Source: Horticoccus luteus (GTDB taxonomy: Bacteria > Verrucomicrobiota > Verrucomicrobiia > Opitutales > Opitutaceae). Taken from it: 32,000 bases of DNA. The notes under the pieces were generated by a model that was not told the origin of the DNA, did not search any database, and worked only from the letters and a program-made list of their open reading frames with translations. Below are positions 4,726 to 30,806 of the stretch, one piece after another. Each line of letters begins with the position of its first letter. Position 1 is the first letter of the stretch. Location of the stretch: the NCBI RefSeq assembly GCF_019464535.1, contig NZ_CP080507.1, positions 2,700,001 to 2,732,000 on the forward strand, written 5' to 3'. A program made the translations under genes and the position numbers.

Positions 4726-4729
4726 CGCG

Positions 4730-5152: not shown

Positions 5153-5230
5153 CCCATTGCTCTTTCAGTCAAACCGAGCCCAAAACTTTCCCTCGTCAGC
5201 GCCATCCTCGCTCCTTTCACTTTCACCCTC

Positions 5231-6196: not shown

Positions 6197-6352
6197 CGCG
6201 ACCGCCGCGCGCGCCACCCCCAGCGTTTCCTTCTCGCCTCGTGATGTTCGTCCTCCCGATTTCCCCATCGCATGCGCGGCCGGCTCACGAGCCGCCCGCG
6301 CGTCGCTCGCGTTTCTCTGCCGCGCGCCGCCCGGGGATTGGAGCTTAACGGC

Positions 6353-8289: not shown

Positions 8290-8350
8290 AAACGCCTCCG
8301 CGTGCTCCCGCCTCACCGCGGTCCTCAACGCCGTCCGCCGGCCCGTGCGC

Positions 8351-9406: not shown

Positions 9407-10272
9407 TCGCTTTTTTTCGCTGCTTCGCCGTTCGTCCGTTGCTCGCTGTTGCCCTCGGCGCGCTCGCGCTCCCCGCCGCGCACGCCGCCGCCGAGATCGC
9501 CAACTCCACGCTCGGCCCGATGGTCGCCCGCCTCGCCGAGAAAACCCAACCCGCCGCGCGCGACTGGTCGGAGTTCGCCCACGAAACCGTGCGCTGGGGC
9601 CAGCGGTTGCAGGCGAGCCAACAACCCGTGCCCGCCGGTCCGGTGCACGACGCCCTCGCCGCCGCCGACCTCGGCGAAAAACTCGACCCCCATGTCGCCG
9701 ACTGGCCCAAGCTGCGCAGCGAATTGCAGAGCCTGCTCGAAAAGCCCGCCGACCAGCAGCCACAGCAGCAGAAAAAGTCCGACCAGCAAAAAGACGACCC
9801 ATCAAAACAGGACCAGCCGCAGCAGAAACAGCCGCCGAAAAACCATTCGCAGAAACCCGAATCCGACGAGGATCGCTCCTCCCCGAATCCGCAGCAGAAC
9901 CAGCCAAAGCAAAACGAGGACCAACCCTCCTCCTCCGACCAGTCGTCCCAGAAAAAATCGTCGCCCGACCAATCGTCGCCCGCCGACGCCGCGAAGTCCG
10001 ACGAAAAGAAAAACGCCGGAAAGAAGGGCCAGTCCGCGTTTGGCGATCTGCAGCAACCGCCCCCGTCGCTCGACCAGCACCCAGGCGACACGCAGACCGT
10101 CGGCGGCGCCCGTGAAAACAAGGAGGAGGCCAAAACGCCATCCGATCCCGCGCTCGCGATCCCGTTGCAAAAACTCGACCAACTCCGCAGCCAGGATTCG
10201 CCCGTTCGGCTGTTTCAACTGATGGAGGGCGACAATAAATCCGCGCCCGCCAAAACAGGTAAAAACTGGTGA
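9403..10272 (+). CDS. secreted low-complexity (Gln/Pro/Lys/Asp/Ser-rich) protein in the BatC position of the operon
   Basis: Signal peptide MIAFFRCFAVRPLLAVALGALALPAAHAAAE. A helical N-terminal part is followed by about 90 aa of QQPQQQKKSDQQKDDPSKQDQPQQKQPPKN...-type sequence. Both ends are coupled (ATGA at 9403, GTGA at 10269). I see no TPR by eye. Confidence 0.7.
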   Translation: MIAFFRCFAVRPLLAVALGALALPAAHAAAEIANSTLGPMVARLAEKTQPAARDWSEFAHETVRWGQRLQASQQPVPAGPVHDALAAADLGEKLDPHVADWPKLRSELQSLLEKPADQQPQQQKKSDQQKDDPSKQDQPQQKQPPKNHSQKPESDEDRSSPNPQQNQPKQNEDQPSSSDQSSQKKSSPDQSSPADAAKSDEKKNAGKKGQSAFGDLQQPPPSLDQHPGDTQTVGGARENKEEAKTPSDPALAIPLQKLDQLRSQDSPVRLFQLMEGDNKSAPAKTGKNW

Positions 10273-13017: not shown

Positions 13018-16000
13018 ATGCTTCCTCCCTCCCTCCTCCGCCTCGCCCGTGCCGCCGCTCCTCTTCGCGCGATTGCACTGCTCACCGGTCTTGCCGGTCT
13101 CGCCGCCGCCGTTCACGCCACGCCGCTGAACTGGGCCGGCACCGGCTACAGCCTGAGCCCCGCCGCGAATTGGACCGAAGCGACCGCGCCCTCCGCCTCC
13201 TCGGATTTGGTGATCACGAAAAACGGCACCACCAGCGGCGGCAGCGGCACCTCGAACTTCCTGATGGGCGGCAACCTCACGATCCGCTCCATCACGTTCA
13301 ACAACGCCTCCGCCCAGTTCAACGCCTCCAATGGCGCCCGCGTCATCACGACCAACAGCTCAAGTTCCAGCGCGAGTTACACGCTTTCGTTCGCGACCCC
13401 CGGCGTTGATATCATCACGCTCACCAACAACACCAACGCCTCCTTCCGCAGCGCCAGCCTCAGTGGCAACAGCAGCGCCGACCCGCAGCCAGCTCTGTCG
13501 ATCGACCTCAATTACTCCGGCACCGCCAACCTCAACATTCAGGATACCTCCATCCTGCTCGTCAGCGCCGGTTCCTACAACACCACGGAAGCCAGACTCT
13601 CCGGCACCGGCGGTCTCGTGAAAATCGGCACCGGCTCCCTCACGCTCTCCGGCAACCACACCTACGCCGGTGGCTTCACCCTCCAAGACGGCACGGTCAC
13701 CGTCACGACCTCCGGCACCGTCACCGCCAATACCATCACCAATTCGCCGTTCGGCACCGGCGCCCTCACCATCCGAGGCGGCACGCTGATCGCCTCCAGC
13801 AACACCAGCCGCTCGGTTTATGGCTCCGTCAACCTCGACGGCGTGGCCACGATCACCTCCACCTCCAACGGCACCGCCGGCAACTACACGATCAGCTCGC
13901 TCGCCAACGGCGCCACGACGTTGTTGAGCAACTCCACCATCGTCGTCCCCGGCCCGGCCTACGACACCGCCAACGCCACCAACGTCGGCGGCCAGGTCAC
14001 GTGGAATCAGGCCATCTCCGGCGATTTCAGCCTCACCAAAATGGGCGCCGGCACGCTCGTCCTCAACACCAACAGCCCCTTCGCCGGCGGACTCGCCGTC
14101 AAGGAGGGCCTTCTCCGCGTCGATTCCACCGCCAACCTCGGCAAACTCCCCAGCACCGAAAACCCCGACGCCGTGGTGTTCGACGGCGGCTCGTTCGAAG
14201 TCACCGGCAGCAGTTTCTCCTCGCCCAATCGCGGCTTCCGCATCGCTCCCGCCACGAGCTTCACCGTCGACGACGGCATTTCGCTTCGCATCCAAGGCTC
14301 CATCCGCGACGTCGCCGGAAAATCCGGCCGCCTGATCAAGGCCGGCCCCGGCGTTCTCGCTCTCGAACCTGCCGCGGGCATGGTCTACACCTACTCCGGC
14401 GGCACGCAGGTGGATGCCGGCACTCTCCAACTCATGGCCGCCACGCTCGGCGCGAGCGGCAGCCCCGGCGTCACGTTTGCCGATGGCACCTCGCTCGAAG
14501 GTAACGGCACCCTCGTCGGCGACGTTGTCCTCTCCGCAACGACCCGCGTGAGCCCCGCCACCTACGGCGACATCAATCCGCCCAACAACACCCTCGGCGT
14601 CACCGGCGTCGGCACGATCACCGTCAACGGCAACCTCGCTCTCTCCGCTGTCGCCGCCACCCCCGGCTCCCTCGCGTTCGACCTCGACGCTCCCGGCACC
14701 AACGACGCCCTCGCCGTCACCGGCGGCACGCTCTCCCTCGGCAACGCCGTGTTCGGATGGCCCAGCTTTGCGTTCACCACCACGGGCAGTTTTGCGGAAG
14801 GTCGCTACACGCTCTTGACCAGCGATAGTCCGATGACCGGCTCCCTCGCGGCCTCTGTGACCGGCGATATCGGCACGCTCAAAGGCACCGTCCTCCTCAG
14901 CCACGATCGCACCAAACTCTTCCTCGTGGTCGACACCGCCGGCTCGTTCGCCGGCCCGGACATCACCACGCAGCCCGCCAGCCTCGGTGTCGTCGTCGGC
15001 TCGCCCGTCACGCTCACCGTCGCCGCCAACGGCTCCCAACTCACCTATCAATGGAAAAAAGATGGCGTCGATTTGCCCGGTGAAACAAAGGCCACGCTGT
15101 CCCTCGCCGCCGCCGGTTTTGGCGATGCCGGGGACTACGTCGTGACGGTGGCCAACACCGCCGAATCGCTCGTCAGCCAGTCCGCCACGCTTGCTGTCAC
15201 CGCCGCGATGGTCGCGCCATCCATTACCACGAACCCCGTCGCCACCAGCGCCAACATCGGCCACAGCGTCACCTTCTCCGTCAGCGCCAGCGGCACCGCT
15301 CCGTTCACTTATCAATGGTCCAAAGACGGCGTCGCCATCGCGGGTGCGACCGAAGCGACATTCACCATCGCGAGCCCCACGGCCAGCGACGCCGGTGGTT
15401 ACACCGTCGCCGTCACCAACGCCTCCGGCACCGCGATTAGCGCCGCCGGCACGCTCACCATCAATCCCGGCGCCTACCTCTCCAATCTTTCTGTCCGCGC
15501 CGCCATGAACGAAGGCCAGACGCTCATCGTCGGCTTCGTCATCGCCGGTGGCGCCAAGCCCATCCTCGTGCGCGCCGCGGGTCCCGCCCTCAACGCGTTC
15601 GGCCTCACCGGGCTGCCCGATCCGCGCCTCGCCCTCTACGACGAACACAGCACCAACGTCGGCGCCAACGACGACTGGGACGGCGCGCTCGCGCCTCTCT
15701 TCAGCCAGCTCGGCGCCTTCGGATTCGCGCCCGGCAGCAAAGACGCCGCGCTCCAGCAAACCATCAACGGCCCGCACACCGCCCAAGCCACCGGTCTGGG
15801 CAACGGCACCATCCTCGTCGAAGGCTACGACGCCGGGGCCAACGACGGCCGCAAACTCGTCAACCTCTCCGCGCGTTATCACGTCGGCACCGGCGCCGAC
15901 GTCCTCATCGTCGGCTTCGTCGTCAACGGTTCCGGCACCAAGGATGTCCTCATCCGCGCCGTCGGCCCGACCCTTGCCAGCTTCGGTGTCACCGGCACCC

Positions 16001-16242
16001 TCGGCGATCCCAAGCTCGATGTGTATGACGACGCCGGCCACGTCGTCGCGAGCAACGACAACTGGAATGCGAACCTCGCCGGTATCTCCGCCACCCTCGG
16101 CGCCTTCCCGCTCAACCCCGCCAGCAACGACGCCGCCATCCTCGTCACCGTCGAAGCCGGCAAGACCTACACCGCGCAAATCTCCGGCGTGAACAACGGC
16201 ACCGGTGAAGCCCTCGTCGAAGTCTACGACGCCAACCCGTAA
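13018..16242 (+). CDS. secreted PATR (autotransporter-associated beta-strand repeat) protein with 2 Ig-like domains and a tandem C-terminal module; no PEP-CTERM
   Basis: Signal peptide ...LLTGLAGLAAAVHA, then TPLNWAG. PATR repeats (GTGGLVKIGTGSLTLSGNHTYAGGFTLQDGTVTV, LTKMGAGTLVLNTNSPFAGGLAVKEGLLRV, LIKAGPGVLALE..YSGGTQVDAGTLQL). Two Ig-like domains carry YQW(K/S)KDG. Two copies of a ~125-aa module follow (NLSVRA..LIVGFV..ILVRAAGPAL..DP.L.LYD..NDDW). Confidence 0.9.
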   Translation: MLPPSLLRLARAAAPLRAIALLTGLAGLAAAVHATPLNWAGTGYSLSPAANWTEATAPSASSDLVITKNGTTSGGSGTSNFLMGGNLTIRSITFNNASAQFNASNGARVITTNSSSSSASYTLSFATPGVDIITLTNNTNASFRSASLSGNSSADPQPALSIDLNYSGTANLNIQDTSILLVSAGSYNTTEARLSGTGGLVKIGTGSLTLSGNHTYAGGFTLQDGTVTVTTSGTVTANTITNSPFGTGALTIRGGTLIASSNTSRSVYGSVNLDGVATITSTSNGTAGNYTISSLANGATTLLSNSTIVVPGPAYDTANATNVGGQVTWNQAISGDFSLTKMGAGTLVLNTNSPFAGGLAVKEGLLRVDSTANLGKLPSTENPDAVVFDGGSFEVTGSSFSSPNRGFRIAPATSFTVDDGISLRIQGSIRDVAGKSGRLIKAGPGVLALEPAAGMVYTYSGGTQVDAGTLQLMAATLGASGSPGVTFADGTSLEGNGTLVGDVVLSATTRVSPATYGDINPPNNTLGVTGVGTITVNGNLALSAVAATPGSLAFDLDAPGTNDALAVTGGTLSLGNAVFGWPSFAFTTTGSFAEGRYTLLTSDSPMTGSLAASVTGDIGTLKGTVLLSHDRTKLFLVVDTAGSFAGPDITTQPASLGVVVGSPVTLTVAANGSQLTYQWKKDGVDLPGETKATLSLAAAGFGDAGDYVVTVANTAESLVSQSATLAVTAAMVAPSITTNPVATSANIGHSVTFSVSASGTAPFTYQWSKDGVAIAGATEATFTIASPTASDAGGYTVAVTNASGTAISAAGTLTINPGAYLSNLSVRAAMNEGQTLIVGFVIAGGAKPILVRAAGPALNAFGLTGLPDPRLALYDEHSTNVGANDDWDGALAPLFSQLGAFGFAPGSKDAALQQTINGPHTAQATGLGNGTILVEGYDAGANDGRKLVNLSARYHVGTGADVLIVGFVVNGSGTKDVLIRAVGPTLASFGVTGTLGDPKLDVYDDAGHVVASNDNWNANLAGISATLGAFPLNPASNDAAILVTVEAGKTYTAQISGVNNGTGEALVEVYDANP
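14953..15468 (+). repeat. 2 tandem Ig-like (I-set-like) domain repeats inside the CDS
   Basis: ITTQPASLGVVVGSPVTLTVAANGSQLTYQWKKDGVDLPGETKATLSLAAAGFGDAGDYVVTVAN and ITTNPVATSANIGHSVTFSVSASGTAPFTYQWSKDGVAIAGATEATFTIASPTASDAGGYTVAVTN. Confidence 0.75.
15469..16239 (+). repeat. tandem duplication of an uncharacterised ~125-aa C-terminal module (copy set 1)
   Basis: Unit 1 YLSNLSVRAAMNEGQTLIVGFVIAGGAKPILVRAAGPALNAFGL..DPRLALYD..NDDWDG..LGAFGF..SKDAAL..ILVEGYD. Unit 2 LVNLSARYHVGTGADVLIVGFVVNGSGTKDVLIRAVGPTLASFGV..DPKLDVYD..NDNWN..LGAFPL..SNDAAILV..EALVEVYDANP. Confidence 0.7.
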
Positions 16243-16473: not shown

Positions 16474-19281
16474 TCACTTCCCCTCGTCCGGTAATTTTCC
16501 CGCACGGTAGTCCGCCGCTTTACGTTCGAACTTCCGGCCATCCTCCGCCTGTCCCCCGCGCCGCGCCAGCGCCGCCGCCCGCTCCGCACTCTCCGCGGCC
16601 GCGGGAAAAAGTCCGTTGGCCGCCTGCGCCGAGGCGAGCGTGTCGATTACGTTGGCCACATCCGGTTGCGCCTGCGCGCAAAGTTCTGCCAGTTCCAGCG
16701 CACGCTTCGGATTGTGCAACTCCGCGGGCGCCGTCACCGCCAGCACCCATGCGAGATTATTGGCCGCGATGATATTCGTCGGCCCGGCGCGCAACGCCCG
16801 CTCGTAATACGCGATCGCCCGGCCGAGCTCGCCCGCGCCCTCAAACGCGATTCCCGCCTGGGCCAGCAACCGGTATTCTTCGGCCCGCCCGGCTAGTTTG
16901 ATCGCCGCGTCGAACTCCTTTTCCGCCTCGGCCCACTTCTGCTCTTTGATCAGCAGTTCACCCCGTCGCAGCCGCGGTGTCGGATCAGCGGCGTTCATCT
17001 CCGCCACGCGCGCGAAACTGGCCAGCGCATCCTTCGTCTCGCCCAGTTTCGCCTGCAACATCCCGATGCGATACGTGCCCTGCGCCACCGTCTGGTGCGG
17101 ATTCACCCGAAACACCAGCACGTCGGGATCGACGTTTTTCGGCAACCCCTTCGGCGGCGCATACGGCAGCGGCTCCAGCCACAACGGCACGGTCCGCTGG
17201 CCCAGCACGCGATAGCCAAACGTCTCCTTCAACTCCGCCTCCGTGGCGCGCGGATTCAACAACCGCGCATATTCTGCAATGTAGTTGCTGTCCTTGAACA
17301 GCGCCACGTGCGTCACCCCGTATTCCTCGATCAACCGCGCGGCCTCCGCTTCCGACTTCGCCGACGAAATCTCCGCCGCAGCTTTCAGGCCATCGACGTT
17401 CTCCCAATACAACGTGCCCAGCGTCTGGAACGCGCCGAAGAACGCCACGTTGACCGACGTGTTGGGACTCGCGAACAACACCACCTTCCCCTTCGGCTGC
17501 GATTCGCGAATCGTCTCCGCCACCTCCCGGTAAATAATCTGCCGCGCATCACCCGCGAGGATCGCCCGGTAATACGCGACCTTCGCCGTTTCGACGACGC
17601 GCACCGTCACCGCCAGGCCAAACAGCGCCGCCATCGCCAGCGCCGCCGCCACCGCGCGACGCCACGGCGCGCGCCGCAAAAACTCCCACGCGCAAATCTC
17701 CTCCAACGCCGCGATCAGCAGCACCACCTGGGCCGGCGCCGCGCTCATTCCCCAACGCACCTGCCAGAACCCGAGCGCCTGCATCAACAACGCCGGTACG
17801 AGCGCCAGCGTCAGTTTGAACCGCGCCTCCCGCCGTCCGCAGAGCATTAACAACAGCACCGCGACGTAGAACAGCGGGTAAATAAACAACGTCTCGAAAT
17901 GCGACCAGATTCCCTCCAGCCGCACCCGTGCCATTAACGGCAGAAACTCCGTGATTGTGTGATGCAGCCCGACGAGAAACGGATCGCTCAACAGAAAAAC
18001 CTTCGCTCCAAAAATTTCGATCGCGAGCACCGGCGCCAGCACCAGCGGCACCGCCCATGCCGCTGTCCACGCGAGGGCGCGCCCATCGCGAACCGCCTTG
18101 CCCGACCGTGCCAGCCACGGCAATACCTGCGCCGTCAACTCCGCGCCCGCCCACCACGCCAGCGCGTAAAGCGGATGATTGACCTCCAGGCGCCATCCCA
18201 AGTGATGCGGCCAGTATTCGAGCAGGTAAAACGCGAAACTCGTCAACGCCCCCGCCCGCCCCCACATCCGCCACACCCGCGGATCAAACCGCGCCGCCGC
18301 ACCCACCTCCCACTTGACCGTCGTTGAGGACGGCGTGCCCTCGCCTCGCATGTTTGTTGTAGGCGGGGTGCCGTCACCCCGCGCCCCGCGCCTGCCCCAA
18401 TTCCCCGCACCCTCACCCCGCGCGATCAACGTCGCCAATCCCGCCGCCAAAGGCACCAGCGCCAGCACCGGTGCGAGCGACGCCGTGCTCACCCACATCC
18501 CCACGCCGCCCCACACGCCCGACCAAAGCGCCGCCCGCTGCGCCGCCATCGCCGCCTCATCCCGCCGCCCAAGTTTCCCCGCGCCGCCCTCATCTCCCGC
18601 TTCCACCTCCGCACCGCCACGCAGCCATCCCCCGCGCATCCAATAGGCTCCGAGCATCATCCCCAAAATCGACGCCGCGATCAGCCCGTGGTGATCCGCG
18701 TAGCCTGGCCAGAATCCCTCGTAAATCGCCCGGTGCCCGACCATCGCGATCGCCACCACGATCCCCGCGCGCAACCCGCCGCAACGCGCCGCCCACCACG
18801 CCAGCACGACGGTGAAAAACGCCAGGAGCGGCAGATTTTCCCACATCGCCCAACGCTCGACGCCATGCTCGAGCGTGCCTCCTGCGACCGCCTGCCACAC
18901 GCGTCCGCCGATCGCGAGCCACCACGCGAGTCCCGAATTCCAGTGCACCTCGCGGCCCACCGGCGCGTTGTCGATCGATGTGTGTCGCAACTGCGGCCCT
19001 TCCTCACCGCGCCACAGAGCCACGGCATAACGAATCCACATGTGCCCATCGACGGTGAAGTCCGGCCGGATCTGCTGATAAGGCGTAGCGACCGGCACAT
19101 CCGCCCGCCCCAGCGAAGACACCAACTGCGCATGCTGATCGCCGAACCAGTTGTGCACTGCCGCCAGCGCGATGACCACGCTCACCACCAGCGCCAGCCA
19201 GCCGGCGCCCGGGGTTGTGCCACCAAAGTGACCGCGCGAACCCGAGGGCGATGAAGCAATGGTGATATCGGGTTTCGGCAT
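16474..19281 (-). CDS. polytopic integral membrane protein (GT-C glycosyltransferase-like, tentative) with C-terminal TPR domain
   Basis: ATG at 19281. About 12 or more predicted TM helices (for example WLALVVSVVIALAAV, LPLLAFFTVVLAWWAA, IVVAIAMVG, LIAASILGMMLGAYW, VLALVPLAAGLATLIA, LTSFAFYLLEYW, AVPLVLAPVLAIEIF, IYPLFYVAVLLLML, LTLALVPALLMQALGFW, VVLLIAALEEI, AVAAALAMAALFGLAV). A soluble domain and TPR repeats follow (GMLQAKLGETKDALASFARV, IAFEGAGELGRAIAYYERAL, ANNLAWVLA). The CDS call is solid; the enzymatic assignment is weak. Confidence 0.8.
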   Translation of the reverse strand: MPKPDITIASSPSGSRGHFGGTTPGAGWLALVVSVVIALAAVHNWFGDQHAQLVSSLGRADVPVATPYQQIRPDFTVDGHMWIRYAVALWRGEEGPQLRHTSIDNAPVGREVHWNSGLAWWLAIGGRVWQAVAGGTLEHGVERWAMWENLPLLAFFTVVLAWWAARCGGLRAGIVVAIAMVGHRAIYEGFWPGYADHHGLIAASILGMMLGAYWMRGGWLRGGAEVEAGDEGGAGKLGRRDEAAMAAQRAALWSGVWGGVGMWVSTASLAPVLALVPLAAGLATLIARGEGAGNWGRRGARGDGTPPTTNMRGEGTPSSTTVKWEVGAAARFDPRVWRMWGRAGALTSFAFYLLEYWPHHLGWRLEVNHPLYALAWWAGAELTAQVLPWLARSGKAVRDGRALAWTAAWAVPLVLAPVLAIEIFGAKVFLLSDPFLVGLHHTITEFLPLMARVRLEGIWSHFETLFIYPLFYVAVLLLMLCGRREARFKLTLALVPALLMQALGFWQVRWGMSAAPAQVVLLIAALEEICAWEFLRRAPWRRAVAAALAMAALFGLAVTVRVVETAKVAYYRAILAGDARQIIYREVAETIRESQPKGKVVLFASPNTSVNVAFFGAFQTLGTLYWENVDGLKAAAEISSAKSEAEAARLIEEYGVTHVALFKDSNYIAEYARLLNPRATEAELKETFGYRVLGQRTVPLWLEPLPYAPPKGLPKNVDPDVLVFRVNPHQTVAQGTYRIGMLQAKLGETKDALASFARVAEMNAADPTPRLRRGELLIKEQKWAEAEKEFDAAIKLAGRAEEYRLLAQAGIAFEGAGELGRAIAYYERALRAGPTNIIAANNLAWVLAVTAPAELHNPKRALELAELCAQAQPDVANVIDTLASAQAANGLFPAAAESAERAAALARRGGQAEDGRKFERKAADYRAGKLPDEGK

Positions 19282-19446: not shown

Positions 19447-19523
19447 TCACGCCCGATGGATTGCTCTAGTCTGAAGGACCGGTCCGCATTGTCCGCGAAT
19501 TCTTGCCCTGGTTTTTCTTTTCC

Positions 19524-21671
19524 ATGCCCCTGATCTCTATCCCCCGCACGTACTCGTTTTTCCTCGCCGCCGCCTGCGCTTGGTCAATCGCCTCCGCCCA
19601 AACCACCCTCACGTGGGACGGTGGAACGGCTGGGACTGGCCGCACGTGGTCATCCGGGTCCAATTGGGATTCCAACAATGCTCCCAACGGCGACGACCTC
19701 GTCATTGGCAGTGGCACACTCGGTGGCTCCGCGACCCAAATCGGCGGCGGAAACTACATGGCACTGAGCTCAAACGCTTCGGCTTATACCTCCACGATTA
19801 GGAGCGTCACGTTCGACAATTCCAACAATCAGTTTCCCGGCGGCACGCTCGACCTCCGCAATTCGTCCGCCACCCCCGCCCAAAGTGCCACCATCGCCTT
19901 TACGTCGACCGGGGTGGATGCCATTAAGGTAGTCAGCGGCGACGTGATCATGCAGTCGCGCACTTCGAGCGCGCAACTGACGCTCAACCTGAACTACTCC
20001 GGTCTCTCCAATGTCGATATCGCTTCCGGAAGTACGCTCACCATTTCGAGTCACCCCGTCTCGGGCACAGCCACCAACAATGCCGTCATCACCGGCACGG
20101 GCGGCATAAACAAGACCGGCGCGGGCACGCTCATCCTCACCGGCCCCACCGGGAATGATTTTGCCGGTGGCCTCAAAATTTCCGCCGGCACGGTCAATTT
20201 TGACAACGCTTCCTTGTTGACGGCGCCCGCGACCAAGACCGCCGACGTCGTGACGATCAACGGCGGCCGCCTTCAATACTCCAGCGCGTCGGGCACAATC
20301 CTCAGCGCCAACGCCGGCGTCACGTTCGGCTCCGGTAACGCCACGGTCGACGTCTCCGGCGCGGGCACGTTCGAGATCCAAGGCACCGTTGCTGGCTCGG
20401 GACAACTCATCAAAACCGGCGCCGGCACGCTGTATTTCCACAATTCCAACACGGAAGCTAACACGTTCGCCGGAGGCACCGTCATCGAGGAAGGCATAAT
20501 CTACCTCGGCCGCAGCGGCAGCCTTGGCACCGGCACGATTCAACTCGGTGTCGCCGGCGGCGGTGACGCCAGTCTCATCGCGAACCTCAGCGGCTGGACG
20601 CAAAGCAATGCCATCGACGTCGCCGCCGGTAGCAGCGGCACGCTCACCATCGGCAGCAGGACGAGTGCCTCCAACACCTTCTCCGGTCCTGTCACCTTCC
20701 ACGGCGACGTTACCATCGACAACTCAAACAGCCTCGGGAATGCCATGATCTTCACCAACACCGTGTCCGGCGCCGGCGCTGTCACGAAAACCGGCACTGG
20801 CGAATGGCGCCTCACCGGTTCCAATTCCTCCACCGGCCCCGTCACGATCTCCGGTGGTTCCGTGAGTGGCGCGCTCGGCAGTGGTTCCCTCACGATCGCC
20901 ACCGGCTCAATCTACGACTTGTACGGAAGTGACCGATCAACCGGTGCTCTCGCAGGCTCCGGCACGATTGTCCTCGGAGCAAACACGCTCACAACCACCA
21001 GCGACTCCAGTTCGACGTTCTCCGGCGCTCTCTCCGGCACGGGCAATCTGATCAAGGCCGGCGCCGGCAATCTCACTCTTTCAGGAACGAACACGTTCTC
21101 CGGCGCCACCACCGTATCCGCCGGCACCTTGAGCGCCCACGGCACCCTCGGCGGCTCCTCCCTCACCGTCTCATCCGGCGCCACCCTCGCCGGCGCGGGC
21201 ACGATTTCAGCCCCCACGACGCTCGCGGCCGGCGCGACGCTCGCCTCGACCTCCCTCACGTTCGACAGCAGCCTCGATCTCTCCGCCGTCGCCGGCACGA
21301 GCGCTCATTCGCTCCTTTTCACCCTCACCGCCCCCGGCACCAGCGACACCGCCAGTATCAACGGCGTGCTCTCCATCGGCAGCCACGCGCTCACACTCGA
21401 CGATTTTTCCCTCAACACCTCCGCGCTCTCCGGTCCCGGCATCTACACGCTTTTCCAAAGCACCCACGCGATCTCCGGCCTGCTCGGCGACGCTGGCAAC
21501 CTCACCGCCTCGTTCGACGGCTACACCGGCACGCTCGGTTTCAACGGCGACTCCACCGCACTCCAGCTCACGGTTTCCGCCATCCCCGAGCCCTCGACCT
21601 ACGCTCTCCTTCTGGCCGCGGCGACCGGACTCGCGGTGTTCGCCCGTCGGCGCCGTGGCTCGCACCGGTAA
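19524..21671 (+). CDS. PATR (autotransporter-associated beta-strand repeat) protein with PEP-CTERM sorting signal
   Basis: ATG 19524 gives MPLISIPRTYSFFLAAACAWSIASA (signal), then QTTLTWDGG. PATR repeats (INKTGAGTLILTGPTGNDFAGGLKISAGTVNF, LIKTGAGTLYFHNSNTEANTFAGGTVIEEGIIYL, LIKAGAGNLTLSGTNTFSGATTVSAGTLSAHG). The C-terminus is IPEPSTYALLLAAATGLAVFARRRRGSHR: PEP, TM helix, Arg cluster. The track ORF opens at TTG 19503. Confidence 0.9.
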   Translation: MPLISIPRTYSFFLAAACAWSIASAQTTLTWDGGTAGTGRTWSSGSNWDSNNAPNGDDLVIGSGTLGGSATQIGGGNYMALSSNASAYTSTIRSVTFDNSNNQFPGGTLDLRNSSATPAQSATIAFTSTGVDAIKVVSGDVIMQSRTSSAQLTLNLNYSGLSNVDIASGSTLTISSHPVSGTATNNAVITGTGGINKTGAGTLILTGPTGNDFAGGLKISAGTVNFDNASLLTAPATKTADVVTINGGRLQYSSASGTILSANAGVTFGSGNATVDVSGAGTFEIQGTVAGSGQLIKTGAGTLYFHNSNTEANTFAGGTVIEEGIIYLGRSGSLGTGTIQLGVAGGGDASLIANLSGWTQSNAIDVAAGSSGTLTIGSRTSASNTFSGPVTFHGDVTIDNSNSLGNAMIFTNTVSGAGAVTKTGTGEWRLTGSNSSTGPVTISGGSVSGALGSGSLTIATGSIYDLYGSDRSTGALAGSGTIVLGANTLTTTSDSSSTFSGALSGTGNLIKAGAGNLTLSGTNTFSGATTVSAGTLSAHGTLGGSSLTVSSGATLAGAGTISAPTTLAAGATLASTSLTFDSSLDLSAVAGTSAHSLLFTLTAPGTSDTASINGVLSIGSHALTLDDFSLNTSALSGPGIYTLFQSTHAISGLLGDAGNLTASFDGYTGTLGFNGDSTALQLTVSAIPEPSTYALLLAAATGLAVFARRRRGSHR

Positions 21672-21953: not shown

Positions 21954-24113
21954 ATGAAGTCGTTGCCTCGCCTCCCTGTTCTCAACGTTCTCACCCTCGG
22001 CCTCGCCGCCCTCCTAACCGCGTCGTTGCGCGCCACGCCGATCGAATGGGCGGGAACCAACTCCGGCAATTGGAATGCCGCGGCCAACTGGACGCCCAAC
22101 ACAACCATCGACAACAGCGGGACTCAGGATCTCCTCATTAAGACCAGCGGCAACGCCAGCCCCGTCACGACCATGCAGGTGAGCAGCGCCACGGGTAACG
22201 GCACGGCGGCCTTCAGCATTCGCTCGCTCTCCATCGACGACACCGCCGCCCTCCTGCACAACGCAACCGTCGGTCTGCGCATCGCCGCGACCAACAGCGC
22301 TTCCAGCAGTAACAGCACCACGCTGACCTTCAGCACGCCGGGCATCAATATCATCTCCGCCGCCAACGGCGCGACCGTGAGCTTGAACGCCACTACCTCT
22401 ACGGGCACCGGCACCCCCTCGATGACGATCAACCTTGGCTACTCGGGCGCCGGCACGCTCCAGGTCGACGGCACCTCGAAGCTTCTGATCAACGCGGCCA
22501 GCACCACCATCTCTGGCACCGGCGGCCTGATTAAAGACGGTGCGGGCAGCCTCACTCTCTCCGGCAATCACACTTACACCGGCGGCTTCACCTTGCAGGC
22601 CGGCACGCTCGTCCTCACCAGCTCCGGCGCACGCACTGGCGACAACACCGCCGTCGCCAATTCCGCCTTCGGCACCGGCACCGCCACCCTGAATGGGGGC
22701 ACCCTCCTGAGCTCGGGCGCCGCCGGCGGCGGCACCTCCGCCCGCACCATCTATTCCTCCGTCATCCTGAACGGCAACGTTGAGATGACAAACTCCACCA
22801 CCGGCAACATCACGCTCAGCACCTCGGCCGGCCAAGCCACCGCCCTCGGTGGTAATTCCACCTTGAACGTCGGCGGCAACGTCACGTGGGACCAGTCCAT
22901 TTCCGGCGACTACAGTCTCACCAAAACCGGCGCCGGCACCCTCGCCCTCAACGGCACCAACACCTTCAGCGGTCTCAACATCAACGCCGGCACCGTTAAC
23001 GTCGACTCCGTCACCGCTCTCGGCTCTTCCGCCGCGCTCAACCCTTCCAGCGTCGTGCTGAACGGCGGCACGCTCGCTTTCGCCTCGGGCAGCGACACCT
23101 CCGCTTCCTCCAATCGCGGGTTCCAAATCGGCTCCGGCAACGGCACGATCGATCTCTCCTCCGGCCGCAACGTCACCCTCCTCGGCAACATCACCGACGT
23201 CACCGGCCAGCACGGCATGCTCACCAAGACCGGCGCGGGCACCCTCACGCTCTCCGGCGCCAATTCCTACTCCGGCAGCACCACCGTCCAAGGCGGCGCG
23301 CTCGCGGGCGATGCGACCAGCCTCCAAGGCGCCATCGTCCTTAACAACGCGTCCTCGGTCACCTTCAACCAGACCTCCGACGGCACCTACGCGGGTTCGC
23401 TCTCTGGCAACGGCTCCTTCACCAAGCTCGGCGCCGCCACCCTCATCGTCAGCAACTCCTCCGCTCACACCGGACCCAACAACGTCGCCGAAGGCGCCCT
23501 CATTCTCCAAGACGCCGTCTTCGGCGGTAACGGCAGCGCCGGCCTCGTCGTCCAGTCCGGCGCCAAGCTCGCCGGCTCCGGCATCATCCGCGGCGACACT
23601 GTCCTGAACGAGGGCTCCTTCCTTTCGATGGACACCTACACCGGAGGCGTCGTTTCGAACGTGATCGGCAAGATCTCGTTCAACAACAATCTCGACCTCT
23701 CCGGCATCGCCGCCTTCTCGACCTCGCCCGTCACCATTCCCACTCCCTTCGGCGCTCCCCTGGCTTTCGATCTCGGCTCCAGCAACTACAGCGACCAGAT
23801 CGTCGTTTACGGCACGCTCGATATTGGCAACGGCCTGCTCGATTTCGCCGACTTCAGTTTCACCACCGCCGCCTCCCTGCACGACGCCACCTACACCCTC
23901 TTCTCCGCTCCCAACGCGACGATCGCAGGCAGCCTGGGCACCACCCTGGTGAGGGATTTCGGCGACGGTTTCACCGGCACCCTCTCGCTCACCGACCACG
24001 CGGTGCAACTCACCCTCGTCGGCGCGCCTATTCCCGAGCCCTCCACTTACGCCGCGCTCCTCGGCGGCATCGTGGCACTCGCCGCCGTTTATCGCCGGCG
24101 CCGCGCCCGCTAA
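21954..24113 (+). CDS. PATR (autotransporter-associated beta-strand repeat) protein with PEP-CTERM sorting signal
   Basis: Signal MKSLPRLPVLNVLTLGLAALLTASLRA, then TPIEWAG. Co-linear with the 13018 gene through the PATR region (LIKDGAGSLTLSGNHTYTGGFTLQAGTLVL, LTKTGAGTLALNGTNTFSGLNINAGTVNV, LTKTGAGTLTLSGANSYSGSTTVQGGAL). The C-terminus is IPEPSTYAALLGGIVALAAVYRRRRAR. Confidence 0.9.
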   Translation: MKSLPRLPVLNVLTLGLAALLTASLRATPIEWAGTNSGNWNAAANWTPNTTIDNSGTQDLLIKTSGNASPVTTMQVSSATGNGTAAFSIRSLSIDDTAALLHNATVGLRIAATNSASSSNSTTLTFSTPGINIISAANGATVSLNATTSTGTGTPSMTINLGYSGAGTLQVDGTSKLLINAASTTISGTGGLIKDGAGSLTLSGNHTYTGGFTLQAGTLVLTSSGARTGDNTAVANSAFGTGTATLNGGTLLSSGAAGGGTSARTIYSSVILNGNVEMTNSTTGNITLSTSAGQATALGGNSTLNVGGNVTWDQSISGDYSLTKTGAGTLALNGTNTFSGLNINAGTVNVDSVTALGSSAALNPSSVVLNGGTLAFASGSDTSASSNRGFQIGSGNGTIDLSSGRNVTLLGNITDVTGQHGMLTKTGAGTLTLSGANSYSGSTTVQGGALAGDATSLQGAIVLNNASSVTFNQTSDGTYAGSLSGNGSFTKLGAATLIVSNSSAHTGPNNVAEGALILQDAVFGGNGSAGLVVQSGAKLAGSGIIRGDTVLNEGSFLSMDTYTGGVVSNVIGKISFNNNLDLSGIAAFSTSPVTIPTPFGAPLAFDLGSSNYSDQIVVYGTLDIGNGLLDFADFSFTTAASLHDATYTLFSAPNATIAGSLGTTLVRDFGDGFTGTLSLTDHAVQLTLVGAPIPEPSTYAALLGGIVALAAVYRRRRAR

Positions 24114-26024: not shown

Positions 26025-29000
26025 GTGAAGCCTTCCCGTCTCGCCGCCTTGATCGTCAGCGTCTGCGTCGCCCTCTGCGCCGCCGCCCAACTCGCGCGCG
26101 CCCAGCCCTACGTCGTCGGACAAAAATATTACGACGATTTCGCGACCAAATACATCGAATATATCCCCGGCGATTTACCCATCGTCATCACCGCACCACA
26201 CGGCGGATCGCTGACCCCGTTCGCCATACCCGATCGCGCCAATGGCACCTACACGATCGATGGCGTCAGCTATACTTTTGCCGCCAACACCAGCAACGAG
26301 ATCGTTACCGCCACCGATCTGAACACCGAAGACTTGGCCACCAAAGTGGTGAACGAGATTCTGGCCCGCACGGGCCATCGCCCGCATTTGATTATCTGTC
26401 ACTTGAAGCGCTCGAAGCTTGACGCGAACCGGGAGAAGACCGCCGCCGCACTCGGCAACCCGATCGCAGGCGCCGCTTGGGACGCCTACCAGGCGTTCAT
26501 CCTGGCCGCTCGCGCGACCGTGACGCGTGATTTCGGATTCTCCTTTCACGTCGATCTTCACGGGCACGGACACACCAACCAGCGACTCGAGCTCGGCTAC
26601 AACCTCTCCAGTTCCGACCTCGGTGTAAGTGACGCCGCCCTCAATCGCGCCGGGGTGCTCTACGATACCTCCGTGCGCACGCTGCCGCTCAACCGACCCG
26701 ACGTCACTCTCGCCACGGTCCTGCGCGGCTCCCGTAGCATTGGCGATTTCATGAGCACGTTGGGGTTCCCCGCTTGCCCGAGCCCGCAGGATCCTCAGCC
26801 CAAAGACAGCAGTTTTTTTCAAGGCGGCTACACCACGCGCACCCACACCTGCTGGACCGACAACGGCATCGATCACGGCCTCCAGATCGAATGCAATTCT
26901 GACGCCCGCACCGACGCCAACCGTCCGCTCTTCGCCGCCGCGCTCGCCCAAGCCCTCAACGCCGTCCTCTTCGACAACTACGGCTACAGCCTCGGCGCCG
27001 CCCCCATTTATCGTCTCTCCGCACCCACCACGACGCTCACCGCCGGCGGCCCCAGCGTCACGGTCACCCTCCAGCGCAGCGGTTACGCCGCCTCCGCCGA
27101 TACCGTCGCCCTGAGCTTCGGCGGCAACGCCCTTCGCGGCACCGACTACACCGCCTCCGCCACCACCGTGTCGTTTTCCAGCGGGGAAACCTCGCGCACC
27201 ATCACGCTCACGCCGCTGACTGTCGGCGGCTCCGCCGACAAAACCATCACCGTTCAACTCGCCCCCGTCGTCCCGCAAACCGCCGACACCACTCCGCTCA
27301 CCTTCGCGCTCGCCAGTGGATCGTTGCCCATCGTGCGCGTCACCGCCGACGCCGCCACCGTCAGCGAGTCCGCCGGCTCCGCGATCTTCCGTTTCACCCG
27401 CACCACCTCCGTCGGCCCCCTCACCGTCAACGTCGCGTGGAGTGGCGATGCGACCGTCGGCCGCCACTATCTCGAGCCGATCGGATCGAGCTTCACCTTC
27501 GCCGACGGCCAATCCGAATTCGCCCTCACTGTCCCGTTGATCGACGACGGCCGCCCAGATCCTGCGCGCCAGCTCACGTTGAGCGTCACCTCGGGAACCG
27601 GCTACGTCCTCGGCACGCGCCCGTCCGCGACCGTGCAAATCACCGACGACGATCATCCCGCCGGCCTCGCCCTCTGGCTCGCTCGCGGTCTCGATGGCAA
27701 CCGCCTCCCCGACGACTCCGGCCAAGGCCGCGATGGCGCCGGCGTGCCCGGCAACGCCCCCACGCCCACGACCTGGACGACCGGCAACGCTTCCGGCAGC
27801 GGCCTCGCATTCAACGGCGCCTATCAAGCCGCGCTCGTCCCCCGCTTCACCGTCGATCCGCAAAACGCGTTCACCCTCTCGTTCCGTTTTCGCACCAGCG
27901 CTTACTCGACCAACCAATACCTCGTTTCCTACGGGCCGCGCGACTCCGCCGGCAGCCTCACGGTTTACATGACGAGTGCGACGACGCTCCGCACCTCCCT
28001 CAACAACTCCGCGGGCACGCTCAACGCCGCCGACCTCGACACCGCCATTCCCAATCTCACCAACAACACCTGGCGCCTCTACACGCTCACGGTCGACCCG
28101 ACCGGCGGACGTCGCGTTTACATCGACGGCGTGCTGCAAAAATCCGCCGGCGGCTGGTCCGGCTCGCTCTCGCCCACCGAACTTTTCTGGCTCGGCTGGC
28201 GCGCGCAAGCCACCACCTCGAGCGCCAATTATTTCACCGGCTCCCTCGCCGATGTCCGCGTTTATCAACGCGCGCTTTCCGCCGCCGAGGTCACCTCGCT
28301 TTCTTCCGGCACCTCCACATTTGCGACGTGGCTCGCCGAGCAAGGCCTGCCCGCCAACGAACACGTTTACGACGACGACGACGCCGATGGCTGGGGCGCC
28401 GCCCTCGAATACGCTCTCGGCACCAATCCCCTCGCCGCCGCCTCCGCGCCCGTCATCACCGCCACGCGCGGCGACGGCACCGTGCAATTCGATTTCACCC
28501 GCCGCACCGACACGACCGACGTCGCCCTCGCCCTCGAATACGCCACGTCGTCCTCCGGCCCGTGGTTCGGCGTCGCCTCGCTCGCCGCCGGCGCCTCGAC
28601 CTGGAACGCCGACCCTGACGTCGTCGCGACCGACGCGGCCGGCGCCGTCTCGCTCCTCGTCAACGACGAAACCACGCCGCGCTTGTGGCGCCTGCGCGCT
28701 GCCATCGGCGTCAACACCACCGCCACCGAAATCACGCCCTCCGTCGCTCCCGTGTTCACCACGCAGCCCGTCGCGCAATCCGCGATCACCGGCACCACCG
28801 TCACCCTCAGCGTCGCCGCCACGGGCCTGCCCGCACCGGTTTATCAGTGGGCCAAAGACGGCGTCGCGCTCCCTGGCGAGACCTCTCCCACACTCACGCT
28901 CGCCAACGCCCAACCCTCTGCCAGCGGCGCCTACACGGTCGTCGCCTCCAACTCCGCCGGCTCCGCCACCAGCACCCTTGCGCAGGTCGTCATCGGCGAT

Positions 29001-30806
29001 GCCCCCGTCATCCTCGCCGCGCCCACGTCTGAATCCGTCGTCGCCGGCACCCACGTCGCACTCTCCGTCACCGCCTTCGGCGCCGACCCGCTCACGTATC
29101 AATGGCGCAAAAACGACGTCGACCTCCCCGGCGCCACGGCCGCGACGCTTGCATTCACCCCGGTGCAGATGTCCGACGCTGGCAACTACAGCGTCGTCGT
29201 CACCAACCCCCTCGGCAGCACCTCGAGCAGCGCGGCCACGCTCACCGTCGTCGCCACCGCCATCGCGCCAACCATCACGGCACCGCCGCAGTCGCAGACG
29301 CTTTACACCGGCCAGACCCTCGCGCTCTCGGTGACGCCCGCCGGCACGAGCCCGTTCACCTACCAATGGGCCAAGGACAACGCCCCGCTCACCGGCGCCA
29401 CCGCCGCCACGTTCAACGTCGCGTCCGCCGCGGTCACCGATGCGGGCAACTACACCGTCACCATCACCAACGATGCCGGCTCGATCACCAGCGCACCTGC
29501 CTCCGTCGCGGTCACGACCGCCACCGCGCCTGCGATTACGACGCAGCCCGTCGCACAATCCGTCATCGCCGGCGCGACCGTCACCTTCAGCGTCGCCGCA
29601 AGCGGCAATCCCGCGCCCGCGTATCAATGGAGCCGCAACAGCACGCCCCTCGCCGGCGCTACGTCCGCGACGCTCGTGCTTACCAACGTCACCTCCGCCG
29701 ACGCCGGCCTCTACTCCGTCGTCGTGACGAACCCTGGCGGCAGCGTCGGGAGTCTCGCCGTCAACCTCACCGTCCTCACGCCTCCCACCATCGCCACGCA
29801 GCCGCAATCCCGCGCGTCCGTCGAAGGCAGCGAAGTCACGTTCACCGTCGCGGTCAGCGGCTCCGGCCCGTTCACTTACCAATGGCGCAGAAACGGCGTC
29901 GCCCTCTCCGGCGCGACGTCCGCTTCCCTCACGTTGACCAACCTCGCGTCGACTGACGCCGGCACTTACAACGTCGTCGTGACGGGCGCAGGCGGCACGG
30001 TGCCCAGCGCCGACGCCACCCTCACGGTCGCGCCGCCCAGCTATCTTTCCAACCTCTCCGTGCGCGCCGCGATGGACGAGGGCCAGACGCTCATCGTCGG
30101 CTTCGTGGTAAGCGGCACCGCCAAACCCATCCTCGTGCGCGCCGCCGGCCCCGCCCTCGACACGTTCGGCCTGGCCGGCGTTGCCGACCCGCATCTCGCC
30201 CTTTACCAAGGAACCAACCTCGTCGCCGGCAACGACGATTGGGACGATTCACTCGCAACCGTCTTCACCCACCTCGGAGCGTTTCCGTTTACCTCCGGCA
30301 GCAAAGACGCCGCCCTCCTGCAAACCCTCACCGGCGTTTACACCGCGCAAGCATCGGGCACCGGCAACGGCAGCGTGCTCGTCGAAGCTTACGACGCGCA
30401 GGCCGGTTCCGCCGCGCGCTTCACCAACTTGTCCGCGCGTTTTCACGTCGGCACCGGGAGCGATATTCTCATCGCCGGTTTCGCCGTGGGCGGCGGCGGC
30501 TACAAAGCCGTGCTCATCCGCGCCGTCGGTCCCGCGCTCGCCGCCTTCGGCGTGCCCGGCACGCTCGCCGACCCCAAACTCTCGATCTACGATCAGAACG
30601 GCAACTTCATCGTCGGGAACGATAATTGGTCCGGCACGCTCGTGCCCATCTTCAAACGCCTCGGCGCGTTCCCCCTCTATGACGGCAGCGCGGACGCCGC
30701 CATCCTCGTTTCCCTCGAGGCCGGCAAATCCTACACCGTGCAAGTCGTCGGCGCCGACGGCGGCACCGGCGAAGCGCTCGTCGAGATCTACGACAACAAC
30801 CCGTAG
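26025..30806 (+). CDS. 1593-aa secreted multidomain protein: FGase-like hydrolase, 2 Calx-beta-like, LamG-like lectin, linker domain, 5 Ig-like, tandem C-terminal module
   Basis: GTG start and signal LAALIVSVCVALCAAAQLARA. FGase-like region ~26110..26995 (IVITAPHGG..IPDR, TATDLNTEDLA, LKRSKLDANRE, FHVDLHGHGH, GGYTTRTH, IECN). Calx-beta-like ~27000..27290 and ~27330..27655 (GTDYTASATTVSFSSGETSRTITLTP; ..FTFADGQSEFALTVPLIDDGRPD). LamG-like ~27660..28310 (..WRLYTLTVDPTGGRRVYIDGVL..GSLADVRVYQRALSAAEV). DDDDADGWGAALEYALGTNP motif. Ig-like x5 28743..30038. Tandem module 30039..30803 ending EALVEIYDNNP. Confidence 0.9.
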   Translation: MKPSRLAALIVSVCVALCAAAQLARAQPYVVGQKYYDDFATKYIEYIPGDLPIVITAPHGGSLTPFAIPDRANGTYTIDGVSYTFAANTSNEIVTATDLNTEDLATKVVNEILARTGHRPHLIICHLKRSKLDANREKTAAALGNPIAGAAWDAYQAFILAARATVTRDFGFSFHVDLHGHGHTNQRLELGYNLSSSDLGVSDAALNRAGVLYDTSVRTLPLNRPDVTLATVLRGSRSIGDFMSTLGFPACPSPQDPQPKDSSFFQGGYTTRTHTCWTDNGIDHGLQIECNSDARTDANRPLFAAALAQALNAVLFDNYGYSLGAAPIYRLSAPTTTLTAGGPSVTVTLQRSGYAASADTVALSFGGNALRGTDYTASATTVSFSSGETSRTITLTPLTVGGSADKTITVQLAPVVPQTADTTPLTFALASGSLPIVRVTADAATVSESAGSAIFRFTRTTSVGPLTVNVAWSGDATVGRHYLEPIGSSFTFADGQSEFALTVPLIDDGRPDPARQLTLSVTSGTGYVLGTRPSATVQITDDDHPAGLALWLARGLDGNRLPDDSGQGRDGAGVPGNAPTPTTWTTGNASGSGLAFNGAYQAALVPRFTVDPQNAFTLSFRFRTSAYSTNQYLVSYGPRDSAGSLTVYMTSATTLRTSLNNSAGTLNAADLDTAIPNLTNNTWRLYTLTVDPTGGRRVYIDGVLQKSAGGWSGSLSPTELFWLGWRAQATTSSANYFTGSLADVRVYQRALSAAEVTSLSSGTSTFATWLAEQGLPANEHVYDDDDADGWGAALEYALGTNPLAAASAPVITATRGDGTVQFDFTRRTDTTDVALALEYATSSSGPWFGVASLAAGASTWNADPDVVATDAAGAVSLLVNDETTPRLWRLRAAIGVNTTATEITPSVAPVFTTQPVAQSAITGTTVTLSVAATGLPAPVYQWAKDGVALPGETSPTLTLANAQPSASGAYTVVASNSAGSATSTLAQVVIGDAPVILAAPTSESVVAGTHVALSVTAFGADPLTYQWRKNDVDLPGATAATLAFTPVQMSDAGNYSVVVTNPLGSTSSSAATLTVVATAIAPTITAPPQSQTLYTGQTLALSVTPAGTSPFTYQWAKDNAPLTGATAATFNVASAAVTDAGNYTVTITNDAGSITSAPASVAVTTATAPAITTQPVAQSVIAGATVTFSVAASGNPAPAYQWSRNSTPLAGATSATLVLTNVTSADAGLYSVVVTNPGGSVGSLAVNLTVLTPPTIATQPQSRASVEGSEVTFTVAVSGSGPFTYQWRRNGVALSGATSASLTLTNLASTDAGTYNVVVTGAGGTVPSADATLTVAPPSYLSNLSVRAAMDEGQTLIVGFVVSGTAKPILVRAAGPALDTFGLAGVADPHLALYQGTNLVAGNDDWDDSLATVFTHLGAFPFTSGSKDAALLQTLTGVYTAQASGTGNGSVLVEAYDAQAGSAARFTNLSARFHVGTGSDILIAGFAVGGGGYKAVLIRAVGPALAAFGVPGTLADPKLSIYDQNGNFIVGNDNWSGTLVPIFKRLGAFPLYDGSADAAILVSLEAGKSYTVQVVGADGGTGEALVEIYDNNP
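28743..30038 (+). repeat. 5 tandem Ig-like (I-set-like) domain repeats, about 86 aa period, inside the CDS
   Basis: Each unit has the pattern (I/F)TTQP..Q(S/T)...G..V.(L/F)SV.A.G..P..YQW(A/R/S)(K/R)(D/N).. L.GAT.ATL.(L/F)..V...DAG.Y.VVVTN..GS..S..A.LTV. Confidence 0.8.
30039..30803 (+). repeat. tandem duplication of the uncharacterised ~125-aa C-terminal module (copy set 2)
   Basis: SYLSNLSVRAAMDEGQTLIVGFVVSGTAKPILVRAAGPALDTFGL..DPHLALYQ..NDDWD.. and FTNLSARFHVGTGSDILIAGFAVGGGGYKAVLIRAVGPALAAFGV..DPKLSIYD..NDNWS... Roughly two-thirds aa identity by eye to 15469..16239. Shared exact nucleotide runs of 26 nt (15514..15539 = 30081..30106) and 20 nt (15559..15578 = 30126..30145). Confidence 0.7.

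Follow-up and report, generated by a model that had tools for sequence, protein, structure and literature searches.

A paired beta-jelly-roll module in place of PEP-CTERM on a PATR protein of Horticoccus luteus: a candidate binding or tethering unit in Verrucomicrobiota

The stretch of Horticoccus luteus DNA analyzed here comprises 32,000 nucleotides (contig NZ_CP080507.1, positions 2,700,001 to 2,732,000; hereafter the window) and encodes three related proteins with PATR repeats (PATR1, PATR2 and PATR3) as well as a much larger protein, hereafter the giant. PATR1 and the giant close with the same kind of ending, a stretch of 255 residues that is a single evolutionary and structural unit, formed by an A-type module followed by a B-type module. 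This pair is best seen as a putative mobile accessory module of Verrucomicrobiota (Opitutales and Chthoniobacterales), usually located behind immunoglobulin-like (Ig) domains. In PATR1, a cassette of two Ig domains plus the pair has replaced the PEP-CTERM/exosortase signal. We tentatively propose that the pair could well be a terminal, non-catalytic module for binding or tethering that allows retention independently of exosortase; the binding, the ligand and the retention are what we infer from the evidence laid out below.

The module pair and the exchanged ending of PATR1

PATR1 (13018-16242, + strand, 1074 residues, stop codon at 16240-16242) opens with a signal peptide and a PATR beta-helix passenger (residues 1-646, 13018..14955, +; Pfam PATR E = 7e-17) that is co-linear with PATR2 and PATR3. 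Beyond approximately residue 640, the protein carries, instead of PEP-CTERM, two Ig domains of the I-set/Ig_3 type (residues ~647-731 and 733-819, 14956..15474, +; Pfam Ig_3 E = 9e-22 in two stretches) and then two modules of ~127 residues. Copy A spans residues 820-946 (15475..15855, +) and copy B residues 947-1074 (15856..16239, +), and the chain terminates two residues past the last strand (..ALVEVYDANP). The giant (26025-30806, +, 1593 residues) ends in a comparable manner: five Ig domains of the same type (28749..30041, +; Pfam Ig_3 E = 6e-61 in five stretches) precede a copy A (residues 1340-1465, 30042..30419, +) that is 69% identical to that of PATR1, and a copy B (residues 1466-1593, 30420..30803, +) that is 63% identical to its counterpart and ends in ..ALVEIYDNNP. 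The tandem arrangement described in the initial annotation of this DNA was recovered, although its starts, placed there at about residue 818 in PATR1 and at nucleotide 30039 in the giant, move to residue 820 (nucleotide 15475) and nucleotide 30042, respectively.

The four copies measure 126-128 residues and share 46 invariant alignment columns, far beyond chance, with an identity of 47-50% between A and B. A six-frame scan of the window with a hidden Markov model detected these four copies only, with independent E-values of 1e-58 to 1e-67. The Ig region of PATR1 in turn shares homology with the final Ig domains of the giant, and the complete cassette of Ig domains and pair (PATR1 residues 652-1074 versus giant residues 1174-1593) is 56% identical, with E = 8e-137. 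A recent duplication or gene conversion of the two cassettes was considered and rejected: they share 72% of nucleotides over 975 positions and 56% of residues, which makes them no closer to each other than to homologues in other genomes, where amino acid identity is 65%.

PATR2 (19503-21671, +, 722 residues) and PATR3 (21954-24113, +, 719 residues) have endings that are alike, consisting of an IPEPSTY motif, a transmembrane helix and RRRR. Pfam identified PATR repeats in all three proteins and PEP-CTERM only at the ends of PATR2 (21579..21656, +; PF07589 E = 5e-6, TIGR02595 E = 4e-6) and PATR3 (24027..24104, +; PF07589 E = 3e-4, TIGR02595 E = 6e-4). Neither of these models matched PATR1 or the giant, and there was no Pfam match to the autotransporter beta-barrel PF03797 in PATR1, PATR2 or PATR3. 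In BLASTP comparisons, PATR1 is 41% identical to PATR3 over residues 35-499 and 26% identical to PATR2 over residues 2-638, the latter alignment stopping exactly at ..LFLVV in PATR1 and ..LQLTV in PATR2. The trio is therefore co-linear up to the pre-anchor segment, as had been annotated, and the earlier description of PATR1 as carrying two Ig domains and a tandem module in place of PEP-CTERM, in a cassette common to the giant, also holds; all sequence strings quoted in its support are present in the translations.

A search with PATR1 residues 1-640 against a collection of 5.8 billion proteins returned 33 proteins, PATR1 itself among them. About 25 of the 32 homologues end in xPEP, a hydrophobic helix and RRRR, whereas the Ig-plus-module ending occurs in PATR1 alone. 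The nearest relative of the passenger is its paralogue PATR3 (P0385, identical C-terminus), and one distant homologue, P0407, possesses the autotransporter barrel PF03797. Because about 25 of the 32 homologues end in this way and none in Ig domains plus modules, PEP-CTERM is the ancestral ending of the passenger family and, on this sequence comparison, the Ig-Ig-pair ending of PATR1 is a derived replacement. Given the identities between the two cassettes, the exchange did not happen recently.

Two observations concern PATR2 itself. At its 5' end (19503-19526), the listed start is a TTG at 19503; translation from the ATG eight codons further on (MPLISIPRTYSFF...) would yield a signal peptide of more usual form, so that either may be the true start. 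In addition, residues 568-717 (21204-21668) match NCBIfam NF038126 (FxDxF family PEP-CTERM protein; E = 2e-8, profile positions 17-165 of 165), so the last pre-anchor segment of the PATR proteins may, judging from this profile match, itself be a small PEP-CTERM-associated domain. The accession adjoins NF038127, the DVUA0089 model discussed below.

Predicted fold, relatives and distribution of the module

With an alignment of 48 sequences as input, AlphaFold2 modelled the PATR1 pair at a pLDDT of 96.0 and a pTM of 0.90, a confidence that suggests a fixed packing of A against B; a single B copy was modelled with a pLDDT of 94.5. In these models, each module folds as a beta-jelly roll with eight main strands, to which two short helices are added. 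Foldseek comparison of the models with the Protein Data Bank (PDB) matched the single module to the C-terminal beta-jelly roll of the Tk-subtilisin-like protease Tk-SP (9ues/3afg; TM-score on the query, TMq, 0.55-0.58) and to the PPC domain of B. anthracis collagenase (5sv5; TMq 0.56, TMt 0.67, E = 4e-4). Further matches included the C-terminal domains of KP-43 and SubHal, p24 GOLD domains, the DeCLIC N-terminal domain and the carbohydrate-binding module (CBM) CBM35 (2w1w; TM 0.44), and the Foldseek results also contained the CBM-containing enzymes 4qaw and 5by3. The best single-module E-value belonged to the Ena2A spore-appendage fibre subunit (9i0y), with a TM of only 0.34. The pair model matched the N-terminal lobes of DeCLIC and the tandem collagen-binding domain of ColG (5iku), both at E ~5e-7, and the low TM of these pair matches (~0.3) indicates that the inter-domain geometry differs.

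Sequence libraries were queried with the window proteins and with 30 diverse modules, the latter also combined into a 30-member profile. Neither Pfam nor NCBIfam matched PATR1 residues 820-1074 or giant residues 1340-1593, and the 30 diverse modules yielded scattered noise only against Pfam-A at E <= 10, without a match to any CBM model. The PPC model PF04151 had no match on the window proteins at E <= 1 and touched one of the 30 diverse modules at E = 0.11; searches of PDB sequences with single proteins or the profile returned nothing. Among curated sequence models, recurrent similarity to the module was confined to NCBIfam NF038127 (DVUA0089 family, FDP_fam), which aligned to 16 of the 30 diverse modules with a best E-value of 1.2e-5, in each case over one common core (profile positions ~23-115 of 150). 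The relatives score 15-23 bits against a cutoff of 29, which is exceeded only by the four-copy protein P0207 (30.2 bits summed over three stretches), and the modules of the window have no match to this model even at E <= 10. The initial annotation could not assign the module to a named family, and this stands: apart from the sub-threshold NF038127, no significant match appeared in Pfam-A, NCBIfam or PDB sequences. The Foldseek check, however, points to a probable beta-jelly roll of the PPC/collagen-binding-domain type rather than to an orphan fold: the class of topology is shared, and the TM-scores are moderate.

The founder of the NF038127 family, DVUA0089 of plasmid pDV, has 205 residues: its N-terminus resembles, by eye, a signal peptide and is followed by a single domain and then a PEP-CTERM (PF07589 at residues 177-199, E = 4e-6); the protein retrieved nothing from PDB sequences. 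In hhalign, the module profile and DVUA0089 aligned from 'DP.L.L...G..I..D' through 'L.PG.Y' (E = 8e-4, probability 24%). At the level of sequence, the module is thus related to the DVUA0089 family without being a member, and it differs from the founder in being paired and never seen with PEP-CTERM.

The two motifs in that alignment are typical of PPC-like domains, in agreement with the fold result. By eye, the module would share two corresponding signatures with the PPC consensus, namely 'D-P-x-L-x-L-(Y/F)-D..G..(V/I)..N-D' and 'L.(P/A)G.Y(T)..(V).G..G..G'. The module resembles the PPC domains (PF04151) and the jelly rolls of subtilases (Tk-SP, KP-43) and collagenases in its eight strands and similar size; PPC domains, too, are C-terminal on proteins with signal-peptide-like N-termini and are often in tandem. 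It differs from PPC domains, to the solved examples of which it is 11-17% identical, by its two short helices and by a first strand in which N-x-S-x-R is invariant; it also comes in ordered A+B pairs that can be N-terminal, and has partners that are mostly not proteases. The closest parallel to the pair is the s3a-s3b region of ColG (5iku), the second-best Foldseek match of the pair model (E = 5e-7), which likewise consists of two consecutive C-terminal PPC-type jelly rolls of a secreted protein and is itself a non-catalytic binding unit. The two differ in domain orientation (TMq of the pair 0.31, root-mean-square deviation ~17 A) and share no sequence similarity, and collagen would not be an expected ligand for free-living Opitutaceae. 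From predicted structure and profile similarity together, the description that fits the module best is that of a divergent and uncurated offshoot of the PPC-like/collagen-binding-domain jelly-roll superfamily.

Conservation was evaluated over 808 module instances (residues in copy-B numbering). N3, S5, R7, G20, G25, R34, G37, P38, L40, D51, P52, N67, W70, G117, E122 and Y124 are 92-100% conserved, and D68 is at 84%. Since N3, S5 and R7 alternate along the first strand, and E122 and Y124 along the last, each set would lie on one face of its strand. Every module opens with N-x-S, which reads NLS in the window and NIS or NVS in relatives, with N and S both 96% conserved. By sequence, these are formal N-glycosylation sequons (15481-15489, 15862-15870, 30048-30056 and 30426-30434, all +); as we know of no N-glycosylation system in Verrucomicrobiota, their conservation is probably structural rather than related to glycosylation.

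The family is large. The four copies of the window were combined into a profile, and when 1.84 billion representatives (50% identity) were searched with it, using no word index, 16,843 of them matched at E <= 1e-3 and 8,654 at E <= 1e-30. A tandem-module query returned 812 proteins whose organism names, where given, are almost all Opitutaceae or Verrucomicrobia, and Pfam assigned no domain to the module region in any of them. A divergent branch of at least 8000 candidates starts with N-I-S-T-R and has 'ESAI' replacing 'DAA'; its few named members are almost all Chthoniobacterales, and it is often fused to a cupredoxin (PF00127). Roughly half of the best 120 matches of this Chthoniobacterales-type branch (P0281-P0384) are proteins of ~390-420 residues that combine a plastocyanin/azurin-like PF00127 domain with a module pair. 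A genome scan with one narrow 10-residue motif, less biased than the top-ranked lists, found 80 loci with 94 module open reading frames (ORFs); 78 of the 80 came from Opitutales or other Verrucomicrobiota metagenome-assembled genomes or isolates, and of the remaining two, one was a short contig assigned to an Oxalobacteraceae bin and the other was labelled 'uncultured bacterium'. The taxonomic range given here rests on this narrow scan and on the top-ranked matches of the large searches, of which the top-150 and top-120 lists were ranked by summed score and favour multi-copy proteins.

Pairing is a constant feature of the family. Among the best 144 of the 16,843 representatives, 116 proteins carry two copies, 24 carry four, two carry six and two carry three. 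The duplication noted at first sight in the window is general: 342 of the 346 copies in these representatives stand in adjacent pairs, and every complete ORF of the 80 motif loci has exactly one adjacent pair. Identity between proteins is 0.52 for A against A and 0.58 for B against B, versus 0.46 for A against B within one protein (0.64 and 0.64 versus 0.58 in the Chthoniobacterales-type branch). Because like copies in different proteins resemble each other more than the A and B of one protein do, the pair is, by this sequence criterion, an old and ordered A+B unit.

The last pair lies within six residues of the C-terminus in 137 of the 144 best representatives, and in the motif sample it is C-terminal in 74 of 87 complete ORFs. 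In the other 13 it directly follows the N-terminal leader, and these proteins continue as a Metallophos/PhoD-like phosphoesterase, a Kelch propeller or CHRD plus DUF1800; pairs also occur internally or at both ends of single proteins (e.g., P0121, P0126, P0133 and P0259). The strictly C-terminal position claimed initially applies to the window and to 85-95% of the family but does not extend to these members. The proposed mutual exclusion with PEP-CTERM was upheld, as no PEP-CTERM-like ending was found in 384 module proteins or in the 13 ORFs with a free C-terminus. Ig_3 is a partner in 41 of 66 complete representatives, accompanied in this set by He_PIG, RCC1, LRR_5, FG-GAP, NHL, LamG, Peptidase_M10, PKD and Calx-beta, and the 25 commonest partner families include no carbohydrate-active enzyme family. 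By a rough heuristic, a signal-peptide-like N-terminus is present in the majority of complete members, which are thus probably Sec-exported, and a lipobox in almost none.

Several individual architectures were also recorded. P0039 (428 residues) begins with a signal-peptide-like N-terminus and a module pair, which a Pro-rich linker joins to a TonB C-terminal domain (PF03544), with the pair occupying the usual place of the TonB inner-membrane anchor. In locus L053, two adjacent genes (241-2895 and 2899-4710) each open with an N-terminal pair, followed in one by a Metallophos/PhoD-like phosphoesterase (first gene) and in the other by a Kelch beta-propeller (second gene), and L055 has an identical layout. 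P0143 (632 residues) has an N-terminal pair followed by ~350 residues without a Pfam match, in which HEGGHMLG, a zinc-metalloprotease-like HExxH, can be recognized by eye.

Possible functions of the pair

The proposal of a binding or tethering module, which we hold tentatively, draws on several lines of evidence. One constant unit sits on very diverse, mostly signal-peptide-like proteins, it occurs at either protein end, and it has no link to carbohydrate-active enzymes. Its solved fold relatives are C-terminal accessory domains, some of which bind insoluble ligands, and in PATR1 the pair takes the place of a known anchoring signal. Under this proposal, the pair would tether the fused passenger to a shared ligand in the cell envelope or the extracellular matrix, a glycan being the most plausible candidate. 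Contact could be made through the near-invariant polar and aromatic residues N3, S5, R7, R34, D51, N67, D68, W70, E122 and Y124, and Ca2+ is possibly bound, as in solved PPC-type jelly rolls. Retention would be non-covalent and independent of exosortase.

Several points weigh against this proposal. The fusions to cupredoxin, TonB_C (P0039) and PhoD-like domains could indicate a periplasmic or envelope role rather than one at the surface. Some PPC domains are removed after secretion and are not anchors. Single-copy modules may exist deeper among the 16,843 representatives, and the near-invariant residues may form a ligand or metal site or, instead, the A-B interface. The structural matches, with TM below 0.6 on the query and 11-17% identity, are of moderate strength, and the jelly-roll fold serves many functions.

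The initial annotation had offered surface retention, secretion and carbohydrate binding as roles. Retention or binding fits best, whereas N-terminal pairs weaken a secretion signal and the partner domains weaken a CBM. A secretion-assisting or sorting domain would be recognized by an outer-membrane machine, or act as an intramolecular chaperone, and perhaps be removed later. The position at the extreme C-terminus in 85-95% of members, protein ends that lie 1-3 residues past the conserved last strand (..GEALVE[IV]Y[ED]xP), the likeness of the fold to PPC domains of secreted proteases, and the diverse cargo together with the PEP-CTERM place taken in PATR1 would all suit such a role. We nevertheless consider it unlikely: a C-terminal signal would be meaningless in the 13 of 87 ORFs whose leader is immediately followed by the pair, and likewise in proteins such as P0121, P0126 and P0133, which have pairs at both ends or inside the chain, and 255 residues in two rigidly packed domains are large for a signal. 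Because N-terminal and internal pairs occur, the pair is not purely a C-terminal secretion or sorting signal. The C-terminal domains (CTDs) of the type IX secretion system (T9SS) are likewise folded beta-sandwiches at the extreme C-terminus of diverse secreted cargo, although their size and strand count differ and the module is also N-terminal and internal. Membership in the CTD family TIGR04183 was rejected, no significant match being obtained (E = 0.38 on an Ig region; two of the 30 diverse modules at E >= 0.09), and Verrucomicrobiota are not known to have a T9SS. The C-terminal '..VYEVF/P' was also rejected, by eye, as an outer-membrane beta-signal, since it lacks a fitting hydrophobic alternation and the final residue is P, R or E in many members. 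As for a substrate-targeting CBM that binds environmental polysaccharide, Opitutaceae degrade polysaccharides, the Foldseek matches include CBM35 (2w1w), 4qaw, 5by3 and the ColG tandem collagen-binding domain, and the module has an invariant Trp with several Asp, Asn and Arg residues. This role is decidedly doubtful and fits poorly with partners that are not carbohydrate-active enzymes: no glycoside hydrolase, lyase or esterase is found among the 25 commonest partners of the 66 representatives, and cupredoxins, TonB_C and beta-helix adhesin-like passengers need no substrate targeting. Membership in a classical CBM family was rejected on the same partner census and on the lack of any CBM model match at E <= 10 in the 30 diverse modules, the likeness being at the level of fold only.

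Pairs might alternatively bind each other and build a surface layer, fibre or matrix. The fibre subunit Ena2A (9i0y) gave the best single-module Foldseek E-value, many proteins have a pair at both termini, and the A and B types are kept as distinct partners. Such self-association seems very unlikely, as the TM to Ena2A is only 0.34 and packing inside a single chain (pTM 0.90) already accounts for the complementarity of A and B. A bolder proposal, to which we also give a small chance, is that the pair is the recognition tag of an undescribed, exosortase-independent surface-display system of Verrucomicrobiota, interchangeable with PEP-CTERM. In that case, a folded terminal tag would dock thousands of secreted proteins on a specific envelope glycan or receptor, in parallel with SLH domains of Gram-positives or T9SS CTDs of Bacteroidota. 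The pair and PEP-CTERM are comparable in occupying the same place on PATR passengers and in serving many different cargo proteins; they differ in that PEP-CTERM is a ~25-residue motif with a transmembrane helix and a basic tail, processed by exosortase, and the pair is a folded, soluble unit of 255 residues without a transmembrane helix.

Genomic surroundings and biological significance

The window has a GC content of 62-69%, and every 2-kb bin of positions 1-32000 shows a strong negative GC skew (-0.16 to -0.27); the + strand nonetheless holds most of the long ORFs with family matches. Upstream of PATR1 lies a complete Bat-like operon (4715-12752, +), which comprises a MoxR AAA_3 ATPase (4715-6196), a DUF58 protein (6272-7270), two VWA proteins (within 6547-8289 and 8270-9406), an ORF without family assignment (8965-10272) and a BatD/TPR protein (10269-12752), all on the + strand. 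A TPR-containing protein of 935 residues (16474-19281, -) separates PATR1 from PATR2. The stand-alone protein at 24189-25154 (+) matches N-formylglutamate amidohydrolase (FGase; PF05013, E = 7e-13) and, by eye, has a signal-peptide-like N-terminus. It lies just upstream of the giant, whose first ~325 residues (26025-27000, +) are 44% identical to it (E = 2e-81). From this resemblance, the giant can be read as an FGase-like hydrolase domain followed by two Calx-beta domains, LamG, five Ig domains and the module pair. The ORFs at 1166-2584 (+), 25263-25964 (+) and 30966-31952 (-) had no Pfam match.

The fold class and the existence of tandem C-terminal PPC-like accessory domains are already known. 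What lies outside the curated libraries searched is the sequence family itself, together with its ordered, obligate pairing, its size, its apparent concentration in Verrucomicrobiota and its interchange with PEP-CTERM on one passenger family. Should the module prove to be no more than a generic PPC-like domain for stabilization or binding, the gain would lie in a useful annotation rather than in a new principle. The family, with more than 16,000 representative clusters at 50% identity, has neither a Pfam-A or NCBIfam model nor a solved structure, and to define it would supply annotation for a great deal of 'hypothetical' sequence in a phylum that is abundant in soil and freshwater. A definition would also offer a testable handle on how adhesin-like, Ig-rich and enzymatic proteins of Verrucomicrobiota that lack an autotransporter barrel or PEP-CTERM are retained at the envelope. 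PATR1, PATR2 and PATR3 represent a natural experiment in this respect, in which the same passenger is equipped with either PEP-CTERM or the module pair.

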